Shown: positions 26,323-41,999, counted from the first letter of the stretch. The stretch: DNA of 64,000 bases from Candidatus Liptonbacteria bacterium (GCA_023244935.1 JAHFLJ010000001.1:13327-77326); one strand, 5' to 3'. Made by a program: numbers and translations. Notes: generated by a model not told the origin, from the letters alone.

Positions 26323-26712
26323 ATGAAGGCTCATCCGCAAAAAGGAATTTGCTATTTACTGGAAAAAGAATTTGCCAAACCTCTGGCCGAAAGAATTTTT
26401 GATTCCCTTGGCAGGCATTTTGGCGCCGGAGAAATTATCCTGGGTTATTCCGATTCCTCCTCCCGATCTCACTACCAAACCGCGATTGAATCCCTGCTTG
26501 CTTCCAACGAGAAAATCTCTCTGGTTAAGTCCGGGATAATCAGCGAAAAACTTTTTGCCTTTCTTCTGGAAAGAACCGGAGCAACCGGTGGAGTATATTT
26601 TACCGGCGCGGATAAAAAAAATGTCTGCATTAAATTCTTCGGCAAAAATGCCAGGCCTCTAAATCAATCCGAACTGGCCAAAATCGGCAAAGTTATTAAA
26701 AAAAATGCTTAA
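26323..26712 (+). CDS. hypothetical protein (129 aa)
   Basis: The ORF precedes and overlaps the HAD phosphatase gene by 8 nt. I recognise no domain. Confidence 0.35.
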   Translation: MKAHPQKGICYLLEKEFAKPLAERIFDSLGRHFGAGEIILGYSDSSSRSHYQTAIESLLASNEKISLVKSGIISEKLFAFLLERTGATGGVYFTGADKKNVCIKFFGKNARPLNQSELAKIGKVIKKNA

Positions 26713-27466
26713 AAATATTTCCACAAAAAAACTATTTATTTTTGACCTCGATGGAACGCTAACCGAAAGCAAATCTCCGATTACTACAAAAATGGCGAAC
26801 CTTCTTTCGGCTCTCCTAACCGAAAAAAAAGTTGCGGTAATCTCCGGCGGTAAATTTGCCCAATTTAAAAAACAGTTTATTTCCAAACTAAAAACCGACG
26901 GCTCCGTCTTAAAAAATTTAACTCTATTCCCGACAAACTCCACGGCTTTCTACTCACCAGTTGGCTCGTCATGGAAAAAAATTTACGAAGAGACGCTCTC
27001 CCCGACCGAAAAAACAACGATATTATCTGCTCTAAAAAAACTTCAAAGTTCTCCCTTATACCGGAAACCAAAAAAAGTTTATGGAAAAATAATTGAAGAC
27101 AGAGCAACTCAAATAACTATTTCGGCGCTTGGTCAACTTGCGCCCGTAAGCGCGAAAAAAAAATGGAATAAAATTAGCGACCTCCGCACTATATATATCT
27201 CTGCCTTAAAAAAGGATCTTGGAAAATTTGAAATTAAAAAAGGAGGACTAACCTCGATTGACATAACCCGTGAAGGAATCGATAAAGCTCATGGTATTAA
27301 AAAAATACTCAAAGAATTAAACATTCCCAAAACAGATGCTGTTTTCATAGGAGATGCCTTCTACCCCGGAGGCAACGACGCTCCGGCCAGGAAGGCAGGA
27401 ATTGACTGCATCCCCGTCTCCGGCCCGAAAGAAACCGAAAAAATAATCAAGACGGCTCTCAAGTAG
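26705..27466 (+). CDS. HAD-IIB family hydrolase (phosphomannomutase-like sugar phosphatase)
   Basis: FIFDLDGTLT is HAD motif I. A cap-domain architecture is present, with a C-terminal GDAFYPGGND. Confidence 0.6.
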   Translation: MLKNISTKKLFIFDLDGTLTESKSPITTKMANLLSALLTEKKVAVISGGKFAQFKKQFISKLKTDGSVLKNLTLFPTNSTAFYSPVGSSWKKIYEETLSPTEKTTILSALKKLQSSPLYRKPKKVYGKIIEDRATQITISALGQLAPVSAKKKWNKISDLRTIYISALKKDLGKFEIKKGGLTSIDITREGIDKAHGIKKILKELNIPKTDAVFIGDAFYPGGNDAPARKAGIDCIPVSGPKETEKIIKTALK

Positions 27467-28308: not shown

Positions 28309-28423
28309 ACCCCGCAGTGAATCGGGCGCCATCTTTACATTTATCCCGCCTTAGCGGGATTGTGCCCAATCTACTACAGGGATAAAGTTGGCATCTGCTT
28401 CCGCAAAATGCTAAAATCTAGCT

Positions 28424-29407
28424 ATGCAAAAGCCAATTTTAGTGTCAGGAATTCAACCAACCGGGAGGCTTCATTTAGGAAATTATTTGGGCGCTTTAAA
28501 AAACTTCGTCTCCCTCCAAAACACCAATAAATACGAGTGTTTTTTCTTTATTGCCGATCTTCATTCAATGACCGAAGAATTCACTCCGAAAGAAAAGGCT
28601 AAACAAATCATTGAACTCGCCGCCGATTTCCTTGCCGTGGGACTAAACCCAAAAAAGGCAACCTTATTCGCGCAGTCTGCAATCCCCGCTCACAATGAAC
28701 TTGCTTGGATTTTAAATACCATGACTCCGATGGGCGAACTTCGCCGAATGACTCAATTCAAAGATAAAGGAGGCGATCAAGAAACCGCCAATGTCGGTCT
28801 TTTCACTTACCCGGTGCTAATGGCGGCGGACATAATTCTTTACGATGCAAAATTTGTTCCGGTGGGAGACGATCAACTTCAACACCTTGAACTCGCGCGA
28901 ACCCTGGCGCGAAAGTTCAATTCCAAATTCGGAAAAACATTTACCGAACCACAACCACTCCTAACCCAGACCCCAAGAGTAATGAGCCTAGATGAACCGT
29001 CTAAAAAAATGAGCAAATCTCGACCACCCGGATGCATCTTTATGGACGACTCTCCGGAAGAAATTCACAAAAAAGTTATGCGTGCCACCACTGACTCCGA
29101 ATCTGTAATCCGCTACGATATTCAAACAAAGCCGGGCATCAGCAACCTTCTCCGCATTTATTCCTCGCTGAGCGGAGAGTTGATCCCTGATCTCGAAAAG
29201 AAATTTGCCGGAATGAATTATTCCGAACTAAAAATTGGACTGTCCAATTTAATCTCGAATTATTTTGCAGAATTCCGAAAAAATAAAAAGGAGATTTTAA
29301 AAAATAAAAAAGGAATAATCTCCGCGCTCTCGGCCGGAAATAAAAAGGCTTCTAAGATATCCGCAGAAAAAATAAAAAAGGTTAAAACCAAAATCGGCTT
29401 AATATAA
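28424..29407 (+). CDS. trpS: tryptophan--tRNA ligase
   Basis: HLGNYLGAL (HIGH region) and the KMSKS motif are present. 327 aa. Confidence 0.9.
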   Translation: MQKPILVSGIQPTGRLHLGNYLGALKNFVSLQNTNKYECFFFIADLHSMTEEFTPKEKAKQIIELAADFLAVGLNPKKATLFAQSAIPAHNELAWILNTMTPMGELRRMTQFKDKGGDQETANVGLFTYPVLMAADIILYDAKFVPVGDDQLQHLELARTLARKFNSKFGKTFTEPQPLLTQTPRVMSLDEPSKKMSKSRPPGCIFMDDSPEEIHKKVMRATTDSESVIRYDIQTKPGISNLLRIYSSLSGELIPDLEKKFAGMNYSELKIGLSNLISNYFAEFRKNKKEILKNKKGIISALSAGNKKASKISAEKIKKVKTKIGLI

Positions 29408-29409
29408 AA

Positions 29410-32400
29410 ATGCCAACAGAAAGAAAAATTGTCGGACAGGACGGACTATCGGAAGGCGAAAAAAAGGAACAAGAACGACAAATTCGCAAAATCAAGCAAG
29501 CTAGAAACTTCGACGAGCTTGCTGATGCCATGTCGGGAACAAAATTTGAAGACAGCATCAAAAATATTAAATTCGCGGGCAAAAGTGTCCGCGCCTTTAT
29601 CGATACGGATGGCCTGCGAAGAGATTATCTCGACCATGCAAACATCCTTCTGACGGAAAATACTGCCTTCCAAATACATATTAAAATGGGAGACCCAGTT
29701 GCTCTTGCAATTCTAAACCAAGGCAGAGAAATTCTTGAAAATGCCAAAAACACCGAAAAGGAGTCTCTCGATCTTCCGGATCCGACCGAAGAACCGGAAT
29801 CGCCCGAAACCTCTCCTATAGACGAAGAAACGGCGCCGGTGCAAGAGCCAATCCCCAATACTAGCGCCCCGGAACCAATAATTTCGGAAGTGGTTGGAGC
29901 CAACCCTCCGTCATCTCGAAGCGCCGAAAAAAGTGACCTGCCAAAAACCCTCGAAGACTACATACGCTTTACCGATAATCTGAGCGGACTCAGCGAGATC
30001 CTATCTGCTTACGGGGAAAAAGAAAACCGAGAAAAAATAACAAACATACTCACTAAGCTAATTTCAGCCGAATCCAAAGCAGAAGAAAGAAAAAATATAG
30101 CCGAAAATATCCAGGAGATTAGAAATCTTTTGTCGGATCTCGATAGCCCGCTGAAAGAAAAAGCTACCGAACTCGTAAAAAACGACCTGGCAAGAATTAT
30201 TGGGATTGATTTAGATGCTCCAGAAACATCCTCCTCTTCTGGAAACAACACAAATGAGAACACCCCTTCCCTGCCGGAAAAAATGAATGAAGATCCGCGT
30301 TTTTTAAGATTAGTGAATGACTTCAGCAAAAAATATTTTTTAGTAGATAACCCTAACTTTTCCAAAGAATTCTCCGGGGCTGTCTCCGTAAATGGACATA
30401 TGATGAGTGCGGACGGAAAAGAAACAAATTTTTTACCGAGTCAGATTATTGGAGTGGAAAGCTATCATACGGCACTCAAGGAAGCAGCAAAAAGATTTAA
30501 AGAATTATACCCGGAAGACTCTCAAGAATATGAAAAACGAAAAGAACCGGAGCTCATAATCTCGGGCATAGCCGGTGCAGCAGCTGAAAACATCTCTGCT
30601 CCTGAAAAGAAAATAACCGCCGAGGAGTTGAAAGAGAAAATAGTAGGGGCAAAATCTCTTGCCGAGCTCGCGGACACGCTAGAAAAACTAGAAGAAATCC
30701 CTACATCCTCCGGAGACTACACAAAAACCATGCCACTTGCCGTTTTATTGCGGGATACTAAAAATTTTGCATACATTGCCCCCGAAGCGATTAAAAGCAA
30801 GGTTGATAATTTTTGGAATCTATATCAAGACCGATTCACAAGGCAGGGAGGACTAAGAGAGAAAGTTTACTCCTTATTATCAGCCATCCTCGAAAACCCA
30901 GAGGCTCACGAAGAATCAAATGGTGCAGAAACTAACGAAATGTCAAAACCCGAGATGCGGTTTACGGGGATAGAAGATTTAAACATCGAAGCGAAAAATA
31001 AACCTATCCGGCCATTTCCGGATGCAGAACAGGCCCCTCCAAGGTTTACAGATATAGAAGAAAGCCCGCTAGATCGCGAAGCGGTTGAGGGCGAAATTGA
31101 ATCAACCATTGAAGAGGTTCTATCCGAACCGGCGACCCTAGAAGCTGCGACCGAAGCAATGTCTCCAGAATCAACTTCCGAAGAAAAACAAAAAATAAAA
31201 GAGGTGTTGAGCTCTCCTGATGCGAAAGAATCACTTATGAAACGGATTAAAAAACAAATGCGCGACCCGGCTTTTTGGCGCGACCTGGCAATCGGAACCG
31301 CGGCAGGAGGCACAACCAGAATGGTGGTCAGAAACTCAATTCGCTTTGCTCTTGGTCCGAACATCTTAGTTGGAATTGCAGCCGGAGGAATAGCCGGAGG
31401 TCTTGGAGCGGGAGTGGTTGAATTAATAAAAGAAAAAAGAATGATGCTCGGAACCGGCGCCTTGGAAAAACTTAAAAACGCTACCGACAACCTCGAAAGG
31501 GCAAAAATCTACGGCGAACTGAAGCGAATCTACGGCGAGAAAAAGATCTCAGGAACCGCGGAAGAAATCGAAGCGATAAACCAGGAGCTAATCCAAACCG
31601 AAACGATTCTAAAAACTGCACTGGAAACAAAGGACTTAGAAGGAAAAGATAAAATTTCGGCAATTCTTAAGATATCGGATGATTCCCGCGAAAGTCTTTC
31701 GAAAGAAGAACGGAAAGAAGTCAAAAAACTACTAAAAGAAATTAAATTTGAACGCGGGCCGGCAGATTGGAAAAAAATCAGCAAGTGCGCAACGAAAGGC
31801 GCCATAATGGGATCCATTGGTGGCGCGCTTGGAGGAGCCTTATCTTCGTGGCTATCCGGCAACTTAAATGGCGGAAACGCAACTGAGAAAGCCCTCGAGA
31901 AGGCTTCAGCGGCAAAAAAGGCAGCTGGGGAACTCTGGAATGAAAGATATGAAGCATGGAAATCAATGAAAGAACCGATATCTCGGGCTCAGGAAGTAGT
32001 ACGCGAGACAACGACATCAACGAGAGACAGTCTTTCCTCGAAATTCTTTGCAGTCACCACCGAGAAAGGTGAAGGCGTAACCCACTTGGCCAGAAAAGCG
32101 ATACATGAATATCTAGCAAATGACACCAAGCTAAATGGGACTCTAGGCAATACAATGAACACCGAAAAACTAGTTTATGCCGAAGACTACCTGCAAAAAC
32201 AACTCACCCCGCTGAATGCGCCGACCCTCCATCCCGGAGATTCATTCCAGATTGAAGGAAATAAAATAGCCGAGGCTCTCGAAAAAGCAGGTGTCTTAAA
32301 CGAAGAGCAAATAAGTTCGGTTGCCAAGGTAATTGAAAGTAATGGGGGCCTATCCGAAGAATCAAAAATGTTTATCTCTAACCCGGGGTTTGGCGTTCTC

Positions 32401-33285
32401 GACCCACAGAATGACTTTGTTGAAGCAATAAGCAAAAATACACCGGTAATATCCGAAGAAATTAACACTAGGATAGCTGAAGGTAGTGCAAAACAAGTAG
32501 CAGAAAATGCAGTTTCTGATATAAAAGAAGATTATGAGTATTTGTCCAAGGTAGAGAAGGGATGGTCTAATAAGCTCGGAAGTAGATTGTTCGAAGCGCA
32601 ACTCATAGATGGCGTTGTATCCTCGGGAATTGCACTGCCCGCAAGCGCGATAGCATTGTTTAGTAACCCGATAGACGAATATGATAGTTATGAAAAACAA
32701 GATCCTCTCGAAAAAGCTAAGGGGCTCGAAGATAAGTATGGTGTGACCCTGGAACATGGCGATGACCAGGAACTCACGAGTGAATCCGTCACAAAACTTG
32801 AGGGAATATTAGAAGAATTATCCGCTCAGTCCGATATTACCGGCCTGACGTTTATACATGCGAGCAATATTGATAGCGGTCTAATAGTAGATGATTATGG
32901 TCAAATTTTGGTTGACGTCGAAAATTATAATGAAGTCAAACCCGGCGCAATCCAAGAAGCGAAAGATAAAACAGCGAAAATGAAAGAACTGGATATTTTT
33001 ATAAGGAGTAAGAAGGCTGAAATTATAAAAATGGCCGGTAAATCTCCGATGTTCGAATTAATAGCGGATGAAAAATTAACAATAGATGAAACAAAAAAAC
33101 AGGCAGAGGCGGTGTTTTCGGCAGTACAAGAAGCTCTGGCTCAAGGAATTAAATTAAAAACAAAAAATATTATTATTTCTGATTACTATGACACAGCTAA
33201 AGGAGGAGCTAAGTTCGGTGTATGGATAAATCAAAACAGCAAAAAAGAAGAAATTGTCGAATTTCTTAAAAAAACATTCGCTTAA
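29410..33285 (+). CDS. giant hypothetical protein (1291 aa), acidic with coiled coils and two glycine-zipper hydrophobic segments
   Basis: The ORF starts 3 nt after the trpS stop. I recognise no catalytic motif. GxxxG zippers (LVGIAAGGIAGGLGAGVV; GAIMGSIGGALGGALSSWL) lie mid-protein, alongside Glu/Lys-rich low-complexity segments. Confidence 0.5.
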   Translation: MPTERKIVGQDGLSEGEKKEQERQIRKIKQARNFDELADAMSGTKFEDSIKNIKFAGKSVRAFIDTDGLRRDYLDHANILLTENTAFQIHIKMGDPVALAILNQGREILENAKNTEKESLDLPDPTEEPESPETSPIDEETAPVQEPIPNTSAPEPIISEVVGANPPSSRSAEKSDLPKTLEDYIRFTDNLSGLSEILSAYGEKENREKITNILTKLISAESKAEERKNIAENIQEIRNLLSDLDSPLKEKATELVKNDLARIIGIDLDAPETSSSSGNNTNENTPSLPEKMNEDPRFLRLVNDFSKKYFLVDNPNFSKEFSGAVSVNGHMMSADGKETNFLPSQIIGVESYHTALKEAAKRFKELYPEDSQEYEKRKEPELIISGIAGAAAENISAPEKKITAEELKEKIVGAKSLAELADTLEKLEEIPTSSGDYTKTMPLAVLLRDTKNFAYIAPEAIKSKVDNFWNLYQDRFTRQGGLREKVYSLLSAILENPEAHEESNGAETNEMSKPEMRFTGIEDLNIEAKNKPIRPFPDAEQAPPRFTDIEESPLDREAVEGEIESTIEEVLSEPATLEAATEAMSPESTSEEKQKIKEVLSSPDAKESLMKRIKKQMRDPAFWRDLAIGTAAGGTTRMVVRNSIRFALGPNILVGIAAGGIAGGLGAGVVELIKEKRMMLGTGALEKLKNATDNLERAKIYGELKRIYGEKKISGTAEEIEAINQELIQTETILKTALETKDLEGKDKISAILKISDDSRESLSKEERKEVKKLLKEIKFERGPADWKKISKCATKGAIMGSIGGALGGALSSWLSGNLNGGNATEKALEKASAAKKAAGELWNERYEAWKSMKEPISRAQEVVRETTTSTRDSLSSKFFAVTTEKGEGVTHLARKAIHEYLANDTKLNGTLGNTMNTEKLVYAEDYLQKQLTPLNAPTLHPGDSFQIEGNKIAEALEKAGVLNEEQISSVAKVIESNGGLSEESKMFISNPGFGVLDPQNDFVEAISKNTPVISEEINTRIAEGSAKQVAENAVSDIKEDYEYLSKVEKGWSNKLGSRLFEAQLIDGVVSSGIALPASAIALFSNPIDEYDSYEKQDPLEKAKGLEDKYGVTLEHGDDQELTSESVTKLEGILEELSAQSDITGLTFIHASNIDSGLIVDDYGQILVDVENYNEVKPGAIQEAKDKTAKMKELDIFIRSKKAEIIKMAGKSPMFELIADEKLTIDETKKQAEAVFSAVQEALAQGIKLKTKNIIISDYYDTAKGGAKFGVWINQNSKKEEIVEFLKKTFA

Positions 33286-33288
33286 CAA

Positions 33289-33606
33289 ATGAACGAAATA
33301 GAAACAATAATCAAAAAAAATCGAGAAGGGCTCCTGTCTCTCTTGGGGATTGAGAACCTAAAAGAAGAAGAAAAAGAAGCTACGGCCAATCAACTCTTCG
33401 AACACTTTAATAAAATAATTATTGAAACCTCGATATCCGCACTAAACGACGTGCAGGTGAAAGAATTCACTCGGTTAATGACTGCCGGACTACCCGAAGA
33501 AGGGATGGAAAAAATATTTGCCGAAACTCCGGGGCTTAAAGAAAAAATTCAAAACGCGTTAAGCCGAGAAGCAGAAACAATAAAGATTGCCTATAACAGT
33601 AAATAA
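33289..33606 (+). CDS. hypothetical protein (105 aa), translationally coupled partner of the giant protein
   Basis: It starts 4 nt after the giant ORF's stop and shares its terminator. Confidence 0.4.
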   Translation: MNEIETIIKKNREGLLSLLGIENLKEEEKEATANQLFEHFNKIIIETSISALNDVQVKEFTRLMTAGLPEEGMEKIFAETPGLKEKIQNALSREAETIKIAYNSK

Positions 33607-33615
33607 AGATTAATC

Positions 33616-33645
33616 AAAAACCCCGCTACTTGCGGGGTTTTTGAT
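33616..33645. terminator. bidirectional intrinsic terminator between the 33289 gene and ileS
   Basis: aaaaaccccgc-tact-tgcggggttttt is a perfect palindrome with flanking A and T runs. Confidence 0.8.
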
Positions 33646-33681
33646 TAATCCTATCCCCAAATAATTCGAGAACACTCTTCT

Positions 33682-36600
33682 CTAGCTTTTTCGTATTGCC
33701 AGCCAAATCACGCCATCATCAACTTTGATCTCGGTTTCAGTTAAGAATTTAGGCTCTTTTTTGAATATTATTTTTGTCGCCCCGGTCTCCTTCAATATGA
33801 ACTTCTGCCACCTCTCTAGAATTCCGGATGTCATCGGTGTCGAGGCAATCATAAGCAAAACCTTGTTCGAAGGCTTCAGCTCGGCTTTTTGTCTTAACTC
33901 CGAGACTCCCCGAATTAGTTCGCGAACCAAGCCTTCTTCTCGAAGCTCATCGGATATCTCTTTATTCAATTCAACTTTTTCACCTATCTCCTTTTTCAAG
34001 GAAATAGCTTTTACATTAACTTCATCCATAATAATCGACATCAGCTCTTCATATTTGGAAAGTAATTTATATGCGTTCTCTCCCAAATATAAATCTGCTA
34101 AAGGCTGCCTGACTTTCAAGGCGGAGCTAGCTCTTTCGGCAAGCGCCAAACTGGAAACATTCCTCGCCTGTTCCATGGCCGAAACAAATTCCAATTCTTT
34201 AGAAGTTATAGGTTTAAATTTATCCCAATCCGCCAAGTGAACCGAGGATTCCAATTTTATTCCTGAATATTTTTTAACGGCTCCAAATATTGCTTCGGAA
34301 AAGAACGGGATAAACGGCGCGGATAATTTTGTAAGTGAAATCAAAACTTTTTCCAATGTTGCCGACGCCTCCAAATATTCTTGCTTAGTTTCCGGCTTCT
34401 GCAGTCTTCTTCGAGATCTGCGAATATACCATCTGGAAAGGTCATCAACAAATGCTTCGAGCGCCAAAGCGGCTTCACGCACATCATACTTCTCCATATT
34501 TTCACTAACCGAATTCCCGGTCTGAGACAACCGCATCAAAATCCACTTATCCAAAACATTCTTGGATTGTTTTACCGATCGCGAGGCCCCGCCTTTTGCA
34601 TAGGTGCGATAGAAAACAAAGGAATTGTAATACAATAAGTGAAATTTCCTGTATACCTTAAGCAATTCCGCCTCGTCAAAATTTTTTGACTCCCCCGGCG
34701 GATTAACCACGTAAAAATACCATCTAATTGCATCCATCCCATACTTGTCCGCCAGCGCCCAAGGATCAACGATATTCCCTTTGGATTTACTCATCTTTAC
34801 TCCGTTCTTGTCGTTAATTAATCCCAAACAGATTACGTTTCGATATGGCGCCTCGTGCCCAAGCAGAGTTGAAGTTGCCAACATGGTATAGAACCATCCC
34901 CTGGTCTGATCCATTGCCTCGGAAATATAATCCGCCGGAAACTCCAATTTTTTCATCAGTTTGTTCGCGTCGGTGAGTGAAACGTTTTTACCGCCGGAAT
35001 ACTTAAACGGAAAATGATTTTGCGCATACGGCATGGCCCCCGAGTCAAACCAAACATCTGCCACCTCTTTCACTCGATTCGCTCGCCCTCCGCACTTATC
35101 GCACTTTAGAATAATTTCGTCGACGTAAGGTTTGTGCAAGTCCAACTCGCCTGAACGATTTATCGGCAATGAATAAAACTTTTCTTTCCTGATTTCTCCA
35201 AATCCATATTCTTTCGCGGTTACAAATTGTTTTATCGGCAAACCGTTCATCCCCAGGCTCAAAGTTAAAAGCGGGTCTCCGTGACTAACAATAACAATTT
35301 TTTGGTCCTTGTGCCGTGAATTTATTTCTTTAATAAATTCCATCATTCGTCGCGAAACATCAAAGACGCTTTCTCCTCCGGGAGGAGTTTTCGTAAGCCT
35401 CTCCTCTCCTTGTCCATGAAATTCCCGATACTCTTTTATCGGACGCCAGTTAAACACGCCGGTGTTTATTTCAGTCAACCGATTATCAAAGATTATTTCT
35501 GCGCCGGTTGCCGAACTTATTTCTCGAGCCAACTGCGAAGTCCTGGTCATCGGCGATGCGTAAATTACATCTATTTTCTCTTTATTCAATTTGCCTGCGG
35601 TTTTTTTAGCTTGTAACTCTCCTCTCTTGGTTAGAGGCGCGATATTCTTGCCGACCTCTATCCCGCTAGCAACAAATCCACCGACATTACTTTCCGCTTC
35701 GGTGTGACGCACCAAATAAAACGAATTCTTATAATAATCATTTTCTTTTATCTCGCTAACCGCTCCAATAACTTTTATCGCCGAGCAATCACCGCACCGC
35801 CAAATCGGGAGCGGAGTTCCCCAATATCGCTCACGAGAAATATTCCAATCTTTTGCCTCTTTCAGCCACTCGCCAAACCGCCCTTCTTTAATATGCTCCG
35901 GCACCCAAGCTATTTTTTCATTCTCCGCGGAAAGCTTACTTCGCAAACGACTAACCTCCAAAAACCAAGAACGGCGCGCGAAATATATTAGAGGAGAACC
36001 ACACCTCCAACAAAATGGATATTCGTGCTCGATTTTTCCGGAAGAGAACATCAACCCACGATTAACTAAATCCGCAGAGATATCCGCATCAGCTTCCTTA
36101 ATAAACTTTCCCTCCCCGGGAAGTCCGGCAATCACTTTTCCCTCATCGTTGATTGTTGTGAGTAATTCAATATCCGGATAATGCTCAGCAACCAACTGGA
36201 AATCCTCTTCTCCAAACGCCGGCGCAATATGAACAAACCCGGTTCCGTCTTCAGTGGAAATAAACCCTGCCGGCAAAACTTTAAACATTTTTTGGACATC
36301 TTGTCCGGCGACTTCAAATAGGGGCTTATATGAAAGACCTACCAATTTACTTCCGGAAATTTTTTCCACCGCCTCGGCAAAAATTTCTTTTCCGTTTTTA
36401 TCTTGAGTTGTCGGCGGAACACTATATGACCAAATATAGTCTCCTCCTACTTTATATTTTGTGTAAGTCAAATCCGCGCCAACCGCCACGAACATATTCG
36501 AAGGCAACGTCCACGGAGTTGTCGTCCAAATTAAAATGTATTCATTCTTATGCCCGGCATCCAAAACCTTCAACTTCACATAAACCGAAGGATCCGGAAC

Positions 36601-37203
36601 TTTTTTATAAACTCCCGGCTGAGCAATCTCGTGACTTGCCAGAGCCGTCTGACAACGAGAGCAATATGGAATAACCTTTCGCTTCTCTTTCAAAAATCCC
36701 CTATCGGCAATTGCCTTAAAAACCCACCACAAACTTTCGATGTAACTATTTTCATAGGTTACATACGGGTTCTTCATATCTAGCCAATATCCCATTCTTT
36801 CGGTTAATCTCTCCCACTCATCTTTGTATTTCCAGACAGACTCTTTTGCTTTTTCGTTAAACAAATTAATCCCGAACTTTTCCAAATCCCGCTTATTTTT
36901 TATTCCCAATTCTTTCTCTATTCCTACTTCAACTGGGAGGCCATGAGTATCCCAACCGGCGCGTCGCGGGACATAAAACCCGCGCATAGTTTTGTAGCGC
37001 AGAATTATGTCCTTAAAAGACCTAGCTAAAACGTGGTGAATTCCCGGTTGCCCGTTGGCTGTCGGCGGACCTTCATAAAAAACAAATTCTTTTTTGCCCT
37101 TTCGCTTCGATAAACTTTTCTCGAAAATTTTGTCTCGTTTCCAGAATTCTAAAACCTTTTTTTCAACTTCGGGTAGGCTAAATTCGGTGTTTTCGTTAAG
37201 CAT
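33682..37203 (-). CDS. ileS: isoleucine--tRNA ligase with an internal histidine-phosphatase (PGM-family) domain insertion
   Basis: HIGH (PPTANGQPGIHH), KMSKS, zinc knuckles CxxC (CSRCQ, WRCGDC, CDKCGG) and the anticodon-binding region are present. 1173 aa. Residues ~490-685 (LVRHTEAESN...PPGGES...VIVSHGD) form a histidine phosphatase fold between the two Zn knuckles. Confidence 0.9.
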   Translation of the reverse strand: MLNENTEFSLPEVEKKVLEFWKRDKIFEKSLSKRKGKKEFVFYEGPPTANGQPGIHHVLARSFKDIILRYKTMRGFYVPRRAGWDTHGLPVEVGIEKELGIKNKRDLEKFGINLFNEKAKESVWKYKDEWERLTERMGYWLDMKNPYVTYENSYIESLWWVFKAIADRGFLKEKRKVIPYCSRCQTALASHEIAQPGVYKKVPDPSVYVKLKVLDAGHKNEYILIWTTTPWTLPSNMFVAVGADLTYTKYKVGGDYIWSYSVPPTTQDKNGKEIFAEAVEKISGSKLVGLSYKPLFEVAGQDVQKMFKVLPAGFISTEDGTGFVHIAPAFGEEDFQLVAEHYPDIELLTTINDEGKVIAGLPGEGKFIKEADADISADLVNRGLMFSSGKIEHEYPFCWRCGSPLIYFARRSWFLEVSRLRSKLSAENEKIAWVPEHIKEGRFGEWLKEAKDWNISRERYWGTPLPIWRCGDCSAIKVIGAVSEIKENDYYKNSFYLVRHTEAESNVGGFVASGIEVGKNIAPLTKRGELQAKKTAGKLNKEKIDVIYASPMTRTSQLAREISSATGAEIIFDNRLTEINTGVFNWRPIKEYREFHGQGEERLTKTPPGGESVFDVSRRMMEFIKEINSRHKDQKIVIVSHGDPLLTLSLGMNGLPIKQFVTAKEYGFGEIRKEKFYSLPINRSGELDLHKPYVDEIILKCDKCGGRANRVKEVADVWFDSGAMPYAQNHFPFKYSGGKNVSLTDANKLMKKLEFPADYISEAMDQTRGWFYTMLATSTLLGHEAPYRNVICLGLINDKNGVKMSKSKGNIVDPWALADKYGMDAIRWYFYVVNPPGESKNFDEAELLKVYRKFHLLYYNSFVFYRTYAKGGASRSVKQSKNVLDKWILMRLSQTGNSVSENMEKYDVREAALALEAFVDDLSRWYIRRSRRRLQKPETKQEYLEASATLEKVLISLTKLSAPFIPFFSEAIFGAVKKYSGIKLESSVHLADWDKFKPITSKELEFVSAMEQARNVSSLALAERASSALKVRQPLADLYLGENAYKLLSKYEELMSIIMDEVNVKAISLKKEIGEKVELNKEISDELREEGLVRELIRGVSELRQKAELKPSNKVLLMIASTPMTSGILERWQKFILKETGATKIIFKKEPKFLTETEIKVDDGVIWLAIRKS

Positions 37204-40376: not shown

Positions 40377-41999
40377 CTACGATACAATTGAAACCAATAG
40401 CGCGCTCAAAACAAGAAACACAAAAAAGAGAAGGAATATATAATTCTCTTGGTATGGTCTCCTGGTTGCAAACCTATACGCCAAAAAACCTGAAGGTAAT
40501 CCCAAAAAATATAAATAATAGTTAGAAAAGAAAATTGGCACCAGCAAAAAACTTAACCCCAATAGAGCTCCGGTTATTTCTACTCCGCGCGCGCCAAGAA
40601 TAACGGGAAGCGTCATTATGCCCCCGGCCCGATCTCCATCCACGTCTTTAATATCTCGCATATTTGACGCCAACGTCATCATGACAATCACCCCATAAAT
40701 TAAAATCGCCGGAAACGCGCTGAATTTTTTGTCGCCGGAAATCCAAAAGAATCCGGACAAAATTGTTGAAAGGCATGCGATAGATATGAGGAAAGAAGAC
40801 AAAATAGGAATCCTTTTAAGCCTATATGGATTCGCGGAATATACATAATAAGCAGAGGTAAAAACCAAAATCATAAAGAATGGATAGTATCCGACGGAAT
40901 AAGCTCCCAAAAGAGACGCCACGAACCAGATGTAACCAAGTTCCTTCATCTCCTCTTTACTCATTTCTCCGCTAATCAAAGGCCGAGATGGATTCGATAT
41001 CGCGTCGATTGAGATATCCTCTTTATCATTCACATGTATCGCAAAAAAACATGCCAAAATCCAAGAAGTCACAAGACACAAAACGCCTAAAACATCTACC
41101 CAGCTAAAATTTTTAATTGTTGCTTGAGCGCCGGCAACCAAAACTCCGACCCCAAGAAGACTGATATAAAAAGCTAAGCGTTCCGGCCTGGAATTTTTAA
41201 AAACCGCTAAAAATTTACTTTTTTGCTCCTTCCAAAAAATAATTAAGAAAAAAATCAGGGATATTAAAAACAGAATCTGAGAAGAAAATTTATTGAACCC
41301 AAGTTCATAAGCTCCGGTATATGTTTTTGTAGACAATGAACCGCCCAAAGCGTTTTCCGGAATTAAAGACGCATCTATTATTTTTTCGATGTACACGCTT
41401 ACTCCTGACCCTCCCGCCTCAACGTAGCCGGCCGGACTTGCCACCAGATAAACGATACTTGGAAAAGATCCGAGAATAAAAATCAGTATATAAGAGAAAA
41501 GCACGGAACCAATCGTTGCGGAAATTTTCTTTCGCTTAGTCCAAACGTAATAGCCTATAAACACTAAAATTAAAAATATCTCCACCTTCATCCCGAGGGT
41601 CACTCCTTTCGCAAAACCGAAAAACGACAAAAAACTATAAAGCAACTCTTTCGGAACCTTGAAAATATACATCATTCTTGCTCCGGCCGCCCCGCTAGTT
41701 AAAAGATCTACAAGCGGCGGTAGCCAAATAATCGGTAATCCGAAAAATAAAATATTCATCACCGAACCGCTACCTCCGGCGAAAAATTTAACCACCAAGA
41801 AAAGCCCGAGAGCGGCTGCAAGATAAAATAATCCGTAATGAACCAGCGTTCCCCCGTCCACCGTCATATATCCGGAATTTGAAGGGCTAGACATAAACTC
41901 CAAAAAAAACCTTATAAAAACCACGCCGGTAAACCCGGCCATCCACCCCAGAACAGAAGTGTGAGCTTTTTCAATGGTAGAAATAATTTTATTCAACAT
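40377..41999 (-). CDS. UbiA-family prenyltransferase domain (C-terminal half) fused to an N-terminal ~280-aa polytopic membrane domain
   Basis: HVNDKEDISIDAISNPSRPLISG (NDxxDxxxD) and DIKDVDGDRAGGIMTLPV (DxxGD second motif) are present. 540 aa and ~16 predicted TM helices. Confidence 0.6.
   Translation of the reverse strand: MLNKIISTIEKAHTSVLGWMAGFTGVVFIRFFLEFMSSPSNSGYMTVDGGTLVHYGLFYLAAALGLFLVVKFFAGGSGSVMNILFFGLPIIWLPPLVDLLTSGAAGARMMYIFKVPKELLYSFLSFFGFAKGVTLGMKVEIFLILVFIGYYVWTKRKKISATIGSVLFSYILIFILGSFPSIVYLVASPAGYVEAGGSGVSVYIEKIIDASLIPENALGGSLSTKTYTGAYELGFNKFSSQILFLISLIFFLIIFWKEQKSKFLAVFKNSRPERLAFYISLLGVGVLVAGAQATIKNFSWVDVLGVLCLVTSWILACFFAIHVNDKEDISIDAISNPSRPLISGEMSKEEMKELGYIWFVASLLGAYSVGYYPFFMILVFTSAYYVYSANPYRLKRIPILSSFLISIACLSTILSGFFWISGDKKFSAFPAILIYGVIVMMTLASNMRDIKDVDGDRAGGIMTLPVILGARGVEITGALLGLSFLLVPIFFSNYYLYFLGLPSGFLAYRFATRRPYQENYIFLLFFVFLVLSALLVSIVS

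Follow-up and report, generated by a model that had tools for sequence, protein, structure and literature searches.

Mitochondrial Mic10 is known for its glycine-rich hairpin, and membrane-anchored Ser/Thr phosphatases of the PP2C type include mycobacterial PstP and Bacillus SpoIIE. Motifs of the form GxxxGxxxG (glycine zippers) have been linked to oligomeric channels, pores and transmembrane hairpins, and a hairpin of this kind was described for SlyB (PMC12955049, citing Kim et al. 2005 PNAS). It has also been reported that the immunity proteins of glycine-zipper toxins were usually multipass membrane proteins (PMC12955049). About half of the genes of the candidate phyla radiation (CPR, or Patescibacteria) were hypothetical, and 106 protein families enriched in this group were mostly unannotated and membrane-associated (Méheust et al. 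2019, PMC6744442). Such families, unannotated membrane and extracellular proteins among them, were thought to matter for host interaction and to underlie host dependence (PMC6744442). Here we describe a pair of adjacent genes from a 64,000-nucleotide (nt) stretch of the genome of Candidatus Liptonbacteria bacterium (GCA_023244935.1), which we call the window. The first gene (29410-33285, + strand) encoded a giant protein of 1291 amino acids (aa) with a mass of 142 kDa and an isoelectric point (pI) of 4.9. The second (33289-33606, + strand) encoded a 105-aa partner with a helical sequence pattern.

The giant shared features with several of these systems. Similar to SlyB, channel-forming zipper proteins and Mic10, it had two near-invariant [GAS]xxxGxxxG segments, and its first zipper region was predicted to be a hairpin, analogous to the one of SlyB (PMC12955049), with its two ends on the inner side of the membrane. 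However, those proteins were small and showed no sequence or profile similarity to the giant, which was modular and had a putative extracytoplasmic domain and a soluble partner. A large zipper protein followed by a small co-oriented gene was also the layout of the type VII secretion system (T7SS) LXG toxins TelE, TspA and LXG-T2, of Tse4 from the type VI secretion system (T6SS) and of CdzC/D. In comparison to these, the giant carried no secretion domain, its zippers were not C-terminal, the partner was soluble and more conserved, and the genes stood in a housekeeping context. With respect to PstP and SpoIIE, three relatives of the giant (P0039, P0076 and P0036) carried a PP2C or PP2C-like domain on the predicted cytoplasmic side, but the giant itself and most family members did not, and their transmembrane and extracytoplasmic parts were unrelated to those of the phosphatases.

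We suggest that the giant and its partner might form a Patescibacteria-specific scaffold or sensor across the membrane, the partner acting as its adaptor in the cytoplasm; to this reading we assign a probability of roughly 40%. Judged by sequence and modelled structure, the pair fell outside all described families; we do not claim a new mechanism.

The conserved gene pair and its family

The giant was searched exhaustively with HMMER using aa 92-1291 as the query, and relatives were counted as cluster representatives. This produced 189 representatives at E<=1e-3, 75 at E<=1e-10 and 16 at E<=1e-30, and the best phmmer match was P0006 (E 4e-77). Thus, the giant, which was first pointed out in an earlier note on this DNA, was not a lone oddity but a member of a widespread family. 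The view of the giant as an orphan came from a word-indexed search, which was limited by low-complexity words and returned the query only, and it was rejected. A near-full conserved core of ~490 aa (aa 540-1030 of the giant; 31027..32499, + strand) was carried by 76 of the 189 representatives. Its parts were, in this order, helices preceding the membrane segments, zipper 1, a helical domain, zipper 2 and a domain that we call KGEG. The core carriers were 390-2260 aa long, and their core was mostly located near the N-terminus with variable tails after it. A few members, among them the giant, P0006, P0007, P0013 and P0036, additionally had long N-terminal extensions.

In public databases the family members were annotated as 'hypothetical protein' only, and our literature search found no paper on the family of the giant and none that mentioned DUF5663, a family discussed below. 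Sequence searches with the giant produced no match in Pfam, NCBIfam, PHROGs or PDB, and no Pfam, NCBIfam or PDB family covered the core or the KGEG domain. To see how the family was distributed, its most conserved domain, KGEG, was used to scan a genome set in which each GTDB species had one representative. This identified 51 loci, of which 49 had titles naming Patescibacteria or an unclassified bacterium. The lineages were Parcubacteria/Paceibacteria, Wolfe-, Nealson-, Moran-, Portnoy- and Andersenbacteria, as well as metagenome-assembled genomes (MAGs) labelled 'Saccharibacteria'. The other two loci had small KGEG genes and non-CPR labels (L017, an uncultured Gammaproteobacteria MAG; L026, an uncultured Bdellovibrionales MAG), and these were probably mis-binned CPR contigs. 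A phage or mobile-element origin was also considered and rejected since neither the giant nor the KGEG domain had relatives in IMG/VR and there was no PHROG match and no BFVD fold match. The giant gene was single-copy.

Of the 51 GTDB loci, L003-L007 and L012 had the large full-core gene, and at each of these six it was directly followed by a partner homologue of 101-109 aa (intergenic distance -8 to +21 nt; phmmer E-values of 5e-18 to 1e-4). A hidden Markov model (HMM) of the partner matched those six open reading frames (ORFs) only across the GTDB loci, and no other window ORF was matched. The same HMM found no partner-like gene adjoining any of the 45 genes that encoded small KGEG-only proteins. 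Additionally, a reverse scan of metagenome contigs seeded with the partner identified nine loci, and a core-family gene adjoined the partner in all seven that had enough flanking sequence. At one of them (L067, 7947-13389) the order was swapped, the partner gene being followed by a gene for a 1686-aa P0018-like member whose core began at residue ~17. Altogether, the pair was retained at all 15 loci that were informative (the window, L002, L003-L007, L012, L060-L063 and L065-L067), while the cores in these loci were merely 25-37% identical and the flanking genes were not conserved. The earlier note had proposed that the two genes belonged together, and their joint conservation in divergent Patescibacteria bore this out. 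The pattern supported the view that the giant and the partner would act as a functional unit.

The closest relative of the window pair was found in a second genome (GCA_035911915.1, locus L002). The partner was 87% identical to its L002 orthologue and the giant 62%, which made the partner the slower-evolving protein. Accordingly, dN/dS was 0.03 for the partner and 0.15 for the last 128 codons of the giant, with synonymous sites near saturation in this comparison. Moreover, the E-values of the partner HMM across the family were 1e-25 to 1e-46 while the tails of the giant proteins varied. Judging from these substitution patterns, both were real genes under purifying selection.

The partner had no hydrophobic segment (maximum 19-residue hydropathy 0.55) and its pI was 5.0. 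Its residues 16-80 aligned to positions 2-66 of the 84 positions in the DUF5663 model (PF18908). The similarity was plausible but sub-threshold, as the window partner scored 15.7 bits and its 87%-identical orthologue P0002 17.3 bits, both below the gathering threshold of 23.7 bits. An E-value <=0.1 was reached by four of eight partner orthologues (best E 9e-4), and P0002 carried a precomputed PF18908 match. Thus, the partner resembled DUF5663 proteins as a small ~105-aa protein of helical pattern that matched most of the model length. It differed from them in its sub-threshold scores, and we found no paper on strict pairing of DUF5663 with a giant membrane protein. Since DUF5663 has no known function, membership in it would explain nothing mechanistically.

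Parts of the giant protein and their predicted topology

The earlier note had described the giant as acidic and rich in Glu and Lys, and the composition of the 1291-aa ORF agreed with this (E 12.2%, K 9.6%, net charge -56). Self-BLAST revealed no internal repeats. The protein began with a lineage-specific acidic region (aa 1-275; 29410..30234; this and the following features are all on the + strand) that contained P/E/S-rich linkers and was predicted to be cytoplasmic. This region had no relatives in the retrieved homologue set, for which the exhaustive search began at aa 92. Module A (aa 289-374; 30274..30531) had the motif DPRF...GKETNFLPSQ and was found in 15 representatives. It also occurred as stand-alone proteins of 105-160 aa and within other multidomain proteins, and its profile had no PDB sequence match. 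Module B (aa 402-492; 30613..30885) was shared with P0103, P0149, P0118 and P0013, the latter two having two copies each.

Column conservation was computed over about 85-124 family sequences. Within the core, a Gly-rich juxtamembrane segment (aa 621-645; 31270..31344) was predicted to be the first hairpin arm or an interfacial helix. It had the conserved basic residues R637 and R641, the latter being K or R in 96% of the sequences. Glycine zipper 1 (aa 647-668; 31348..31413) followed the pattern [GA]xxxGxxxG with G659 (92%) and G663 (98%), and its positions 655, 660, 664 and 668 were G, A or S in 81-96%. The next part was an inter-zipper helical domain (aa 673-792; 31426..31785), which was basic in the giant (pI 9.2), had K+R-rich flanks and was predicted to be cytoplasmic. 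Glycine zipper 2 (aa 796-818; 31795..31863) was a predicted transmembrane helix running from inside to outside. Its glycines were similarly conserved (G797 97%, G801 98%, G804 84%, G805 74% with 100% G/A/S, and G808 78%). The zipper glycines were thus nearly invariant family-wide. Both zipper segments quoted in the earlier note were present at aa 651-674 and 796-819. The giant had eight matches to the motifs [GAS]xxxGxxxG or GxxxGxxx[GST] versus 1.9 expected in shuffled sequences (p ~0.0005).

The KGEG domain (aa 869-1025; 32014..32484) was predicted to be extracytoplasmic. It had two characteristic motifs, KGxGxTHxAR and (V/I)YxEDxLQK, and G887, G889, T891, R895, E925 and D926 were 87-99% conserved. 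An AlphaFold2 (AF2) model of the whole core from 33 sequences had a predicted local distance difference test score (pLDDT) of 74, with 80-92 for the inter-zipper domain and 92-97 for the last domain. A separate model of KGEG (aa 869-1025), made from 62 sequences, had a pLDDT of 92 and a predicted template modelling score (pTM) of 0.85. In this model, five helices came after a beta-alpha-alpha-beta unit, and no solved structure was recognised as a relative of the domain. Its invariant Gly-rich loop between strand and helix, together with the conserved Thr, Arg, Glu and Asp, had the appearance of a site for binding or catalysis.

The domain was also found in small paralogs of ~170-330 aa that consisted of an N-terminal membrane anchor, a low-complexity linker and KGEG (45 loci within L008-L053; e.g., P0082, P0087 and P0095). 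Many of them had an 'MPGPQF' motif near the N-terminus, and they belonged to no Pfam family. A separate observation concerned the small KGEG representative P0106 (143 aa), which began with a fragment of a DnaG-type CHC2 zinc finger (Zn_ribbon_DnaG, E 5e-16) joined directly to the KGEG domain; the gene call was probably frameshifted or a chimera.

The C-terminal part of the giant contained a third hydrophobic segment, TM3 (aa 1063-1088; 32596..32673), which the earlier note did not mention. It had an equivalent in 46 of 76 relatives and was predicted to run from outside to inside. It was followed by a C-terminal domain (aa 1090-1291; 32677..33282) that ended in ...EEIVEFLKKTFA, was common to the closest relatives and was 62% identical to the L002 fragment. 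Within the family set, the C-terminal ~200 aa aligned to the tail of P0007 (E 1.6e-6), and the tail motif '...IVEF[IL]KK' recurred in P0006, P0007 and L060.

The topology was derived from three independent lines of evidence that agreed with each other: the charge bias in ~60 members, the small paralogs and the sites of PP2C fusions. The family averages of K+R residues flanking zipper region 1 were 4.4 before and 4.1 after, those flanking zipper 2 were 5.0 before and 1.3 after, and those flanking TM3 were 2.3 before and 4.1 after (46/76 members with the segment). In the small paralogs, an anchor was found in 37 of 43, with 3.1 K+R before it and 1.6 after it; therefore, their N-terminus was likely to be inside and the KGEG domain outside. 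PP2C domains were taken to be cytoplasmic, and they were fused either N-terminal to the core or C-terminal to TM3, which placed both ends of the protein on the same side and implied an even number of membrane crossings.

Thus, the following arrangement was proposed. The acidic N-terminal arm (aa 1-620) with its exchangeable modules would be cytoplasmic, and zipper region 1 (aa 621-668) would form a helical hairpin that is embedded in the membrane and has its two ends on the inside. The basic helical domain (aa 673-792) would then lie at the cytoplasmic face, zipper 2 (aa 796-818) would cross the membrane outward and the ~157-aa KGEG domain would be exposed outside the cell. Finally, TM3 (aa 1063-1088) would return inward and the C-terminal domain would be cytoplasmic. 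We considered this multi-pass architecture fairly probable.

Possible function and competing explanations

Two associations with known machinery were found in the family. The first was with PP2C phosphatases, as PP2C_2 domains were fused to the family proteins P0039 (aa 751-964, 50.5 bits) and P0076 (aa 59-256, 35.1 bits) and a marginal one was detected in P0036 (aa 181-348, 23.1 bits versus the threshold of 24). The domain was N-terminal to the core in P0076 (and in the marginal P0036) and located after TM3 in P0039. Moreover, the gene directly 3' of the partner at locus L002 (724-1011) matched the PP2C region of P0039 (E 1.9e-10). There was no PP2C domain in the giant and no PP2C ORF in the window, and ~45 other large members had no Pfam domain at all. 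The second association was with FtsH. An ftsH gene (612-622 aa products with Walker A GPPGTGKT and an HEGGH motif of the HExxH type) came directly after the pair in four of the six GTDB loci, all from Parcubacteria genomes (L003 9686-11521, - strand; L004 9675-11513; L005 10250-12118; L006 9507-11345). It was not near the pair in the window or in the metagenome loci. We regard both links as minority associations and as hints.

In the scaffold or sensor model, the invariant small residues of the zippers would allow tight helix-helix packing, within a chain or between chains that oligomerise. The outside KGEG domain would probably bind a ligand or an envelope component. Effectors in the cytoplasm, in some lineages among them a PP2C Ser/Thr phosphatase, would be recruited by the inner arms and the 12-kDa partner, which these arms might bind. 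Taken alone, the role as a scaffold or sensor was a tentative proposal and should be viewed as doubtful. A still more specific version can be imagined, in which a surface domain of new fold senses or grips the envelope or a host cell, the zipper assembly signals inward, and the DUF5663-like adaptor couples it to PP2C phosphosignalling and/or FtsH-dependent turnover throughout Patescibacteria. This extended version was unlikely.

Several points spoke against the scaffold or sensor model and the topology on which it was built. Namely, the topology was based on charge statistics and hydropathy rather than on a dedicated predictor, the AF2 pLDDT was <50 in zipper region 1, and the zipper segments were just moderately hydrophobic with ~25% Gly. 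Furthermore, TM3 of the giant itself did not have the positive C-terminal flank of its relatives. As for the effectors, PP2C was fused in 2-3 of ~60 scanned members and adjacent in one of 15 loci, FtsH was adjacent in four of 15 loci, and both were absent beside the window pair.

The work turned an anonymous giant ORF into a defined unit with a delimited core, two recurring modules, a modelled domain, a strictly co-inherited partner and an explicit topology, and PP2C and FtsH provided two leads to known machinery. Hypothetical membrane proteins with wide conservation are frequent in CPR, and, given the 106 CPR-enriched families described before (PMC6744442), a family of this general type was to be expected; the mechanism suggested here is a proposal. 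If the function were solved, it would annotate hundreds of database proteins with the KGEG domain, large and small, and provide a first handle on DUF5663-like proteins. If the pair were truly a signalling or tethering device, it would represent an envelope system peculiar to this lineage of ultra-small episymbionts.

One alternative explanation was a channel or a membrane-shaping oligomer, where the zipper helices would homo-oligomerise into a pore or a curvature-inducing assembly regulated by the soluble arms, comparable to the hairpins of SlyB or Mic10. The near-invariance of GxxxGxxxG across ~85 members and its enrichment over shuffled sequences were in line with this, as were the hairpin-like charge pattern of zipper region 1 and the compatibility of such an oligomer with the proposed topology. 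The core profile had weak PDB sequence matches to the glycine-zipper segment of the prion protein and to nothing else. However, the motif by itself would be compatible with a pore and with ordinary close packing of helices alike. There was no Pfam match to Gly-zipper families, Mic10 or channel families at E up to 1, and none of Gly-zipper_Omp, YMGG, OmpA, Transgly_assoc and Mic10 was listed for the whole giant or for aa 601-847 at E up to 1-5. A mostly soluble 142-kDa protein with only three or four membrane segments also fitted a pore poorly, and this explanation made no use of the KGEG domain, the most conserved part, or of the obligatory soluble partner. We therefore held it to be unlikely. 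The earlier note had pointed to pore-forming and membrane-remodelling proteins, and the motif was the sole support for such a role; nothing else spoke for it, as the protein had no secretion domain, its zippers were in the middle, the partner was soluble and more conserved, and the gene context was of a housekeeping type.

The giant might instead be a cell-surface tether or an envelope organiser. In this case, KGEG would bind the cell wall, the S-layer or a host surface and the giant would anchor it to FtsH or to division and quality-control factors, the function being structural rather than signalling. The same domain was present on anchored proteins of ~200 aa with a low-complexity linker in many CPR lineages, ftsH was adjacent at four loci, and CPR-enriched families were mostly unannotated membrane or extracellular proteins (PMC6744442). 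On the other hand, the KGEG domain had no Pfam LysM match, no structural similarity to the beta-alpha-alpha-beta fold of LysM and none to any other known wall-binding or adhesin fold, and the exposed part was small for an adhesin (~240 aa between zipper 2 and TM3). The recurrent neighbours of the small KGEG genes were of a housekeeping type, namely prfA, prmC and a sigma-factor-like gene. A tether of this kind would overlap heavily with the scaffold or sensor model, the two being computationally inseparable, and we judged it improbable as a separate explanation.

A third explanation was a glycine-zipper pore-forming toxin with a downstream immunity gene, or an antitoxin pair of the TacA/DUF1778 type. 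Polymorphic toxins, those of the LXG/T7SS type included, are typically encoded as a large zipper protein with a small gene directly after it (PMC12955049), and the C-terminal tails were highly variable among the members. Additionally, the partner profile had a borderline hmmsearch match to the DUF1778 structure 7zg6_A (E 0.0018) and weak matches to Pfam TacA1. However, no LXG, WXG, Rhs, PAAR or other secretion or trafficking domain was found in Pfam, NCBIfam or PHROGs, and the zippers were located in the conserved core rather than in a variable C-terminal toxin domain. The partner had none of the hydrophobic segments expected of a multipass immunity protein, and it was conserved family-wide and evolved more slowly than the giant. 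The single-copy gene in a housekeeping context, with no IMG/VR relatives, did not resemble a toxin locus either. Identity of the partner as a TacA/DUF1778 antitoxin was rejected, since its hhalign probability against a TacA profile was 7.5% over 42 columns and there was no adjacent GNAT (TacT) toxin gene. The TacA profile was built from six plasmid genes, and the genuine DUF1778 genes there preceded GNAT genes, whereas the neighbours of the partner were the giant gene and ileS. Thus, the toxin-immunity or toxin-antitoxin explanation was largely refuted and very improbable.

Finally, it was hardly credible that the adjacency of the two genes was meaningless, i.e., two unrelated hypothetical genes packed in a compact genome (33% of same-strand junctions in the window were <=10 nt and its coding density was ~86%), because the adjacency was kept at all informative loci despite the diverged cores and survived a swap of the order, while the flanking genes, including trpS, were not conserved.

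Locus layout and other features of the window

Upstream of the giant gene was trpS (28424-29407, + strand), which encoded a tryptophanyl-tRNA synthetase (Pfam tRNA-synt_1b, E 6e-75) and lay outside the conserved unit. The earlier note gave the start of the giant as 3 nt past the trpS stop and the start of the partner as 4 nt past the stop of the giant. The ORF map gave the same positions, corresponding to intergenic gaps of 2 and 3 nt. Since one third of the same-strand junctions in the window were <=10 nt, such tight spacing was weak evidence of coupling on its own. The proposed transcription unit with trpS had no wider meaning as trpS was not located upstream in any relative examined, and a conserved trpS-giant operon was rejected because no trpS was near the pair in relatives. 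The start of trpS was ambiguous, the longest ORF (28424) encoding 327 aa and the public gene call (28487) 306 aa, and both lengths were found among its cluster members.

A sigma-70-like promoter match 5' of trpS (28388..28417, + strand; TTGGCA-18-TAAAAT with TG) could mark where the local transcript begins. As matches of this kind were no more frequent in the region than expected by chance, it was a candidate only. Almost no gene in the window had a Shine-Dalgarno-like motif within 20 nt upstream, and the leaders, including those of the giant and the partner, were A/T-rich. For this reason, Shine-Dalgarno placement could not be used to judge translational coupling of the pair. Downstream, the bidirectional terminator proposed in the earlier note was recognised between the partner and the convergent ileS gene. 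It was a perfect hairpin with a 20-bp stem (33607-33651) that had a G+C core and A/T runs on both sides, was shared by the two genes and had no equally strong terminator-like counterpart elsewhere in the region.

Further observations concerned other genes of the window. The gene at 40377-41999 (- strand) encoded a 540-aa protein with a ~280-aa N-terminal extension without a Pfam match, followed by a UbiA-family prenyltransferase domain at residues ~286-522. A 129-aa ORF (26323-26712, + strand) overlapped by 8 nt the beginning of the gene for a HAD/eukaryotic-type phosphomannomutase (26705-27466, + strand). By eye, this ORF resembled an N-terminal phosphohexomutase fragment, which might point to a split gene or a remnant. 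Finally, ileS (33682-37203, - strand) had, according to precomputed Pfam matches, a His_Phos_1 (histidine phosphatase) domain (PF00300) inserted between the halves of the catalytic domain of its isoleucyl-tRNA synthetase product, with both catalytic motifs, 'LVRHTEAESN' and 'VSHGD', in the translation. An embedded domain of phosphatase fold is unusual for an aminoacyl-tRNA synthetase.

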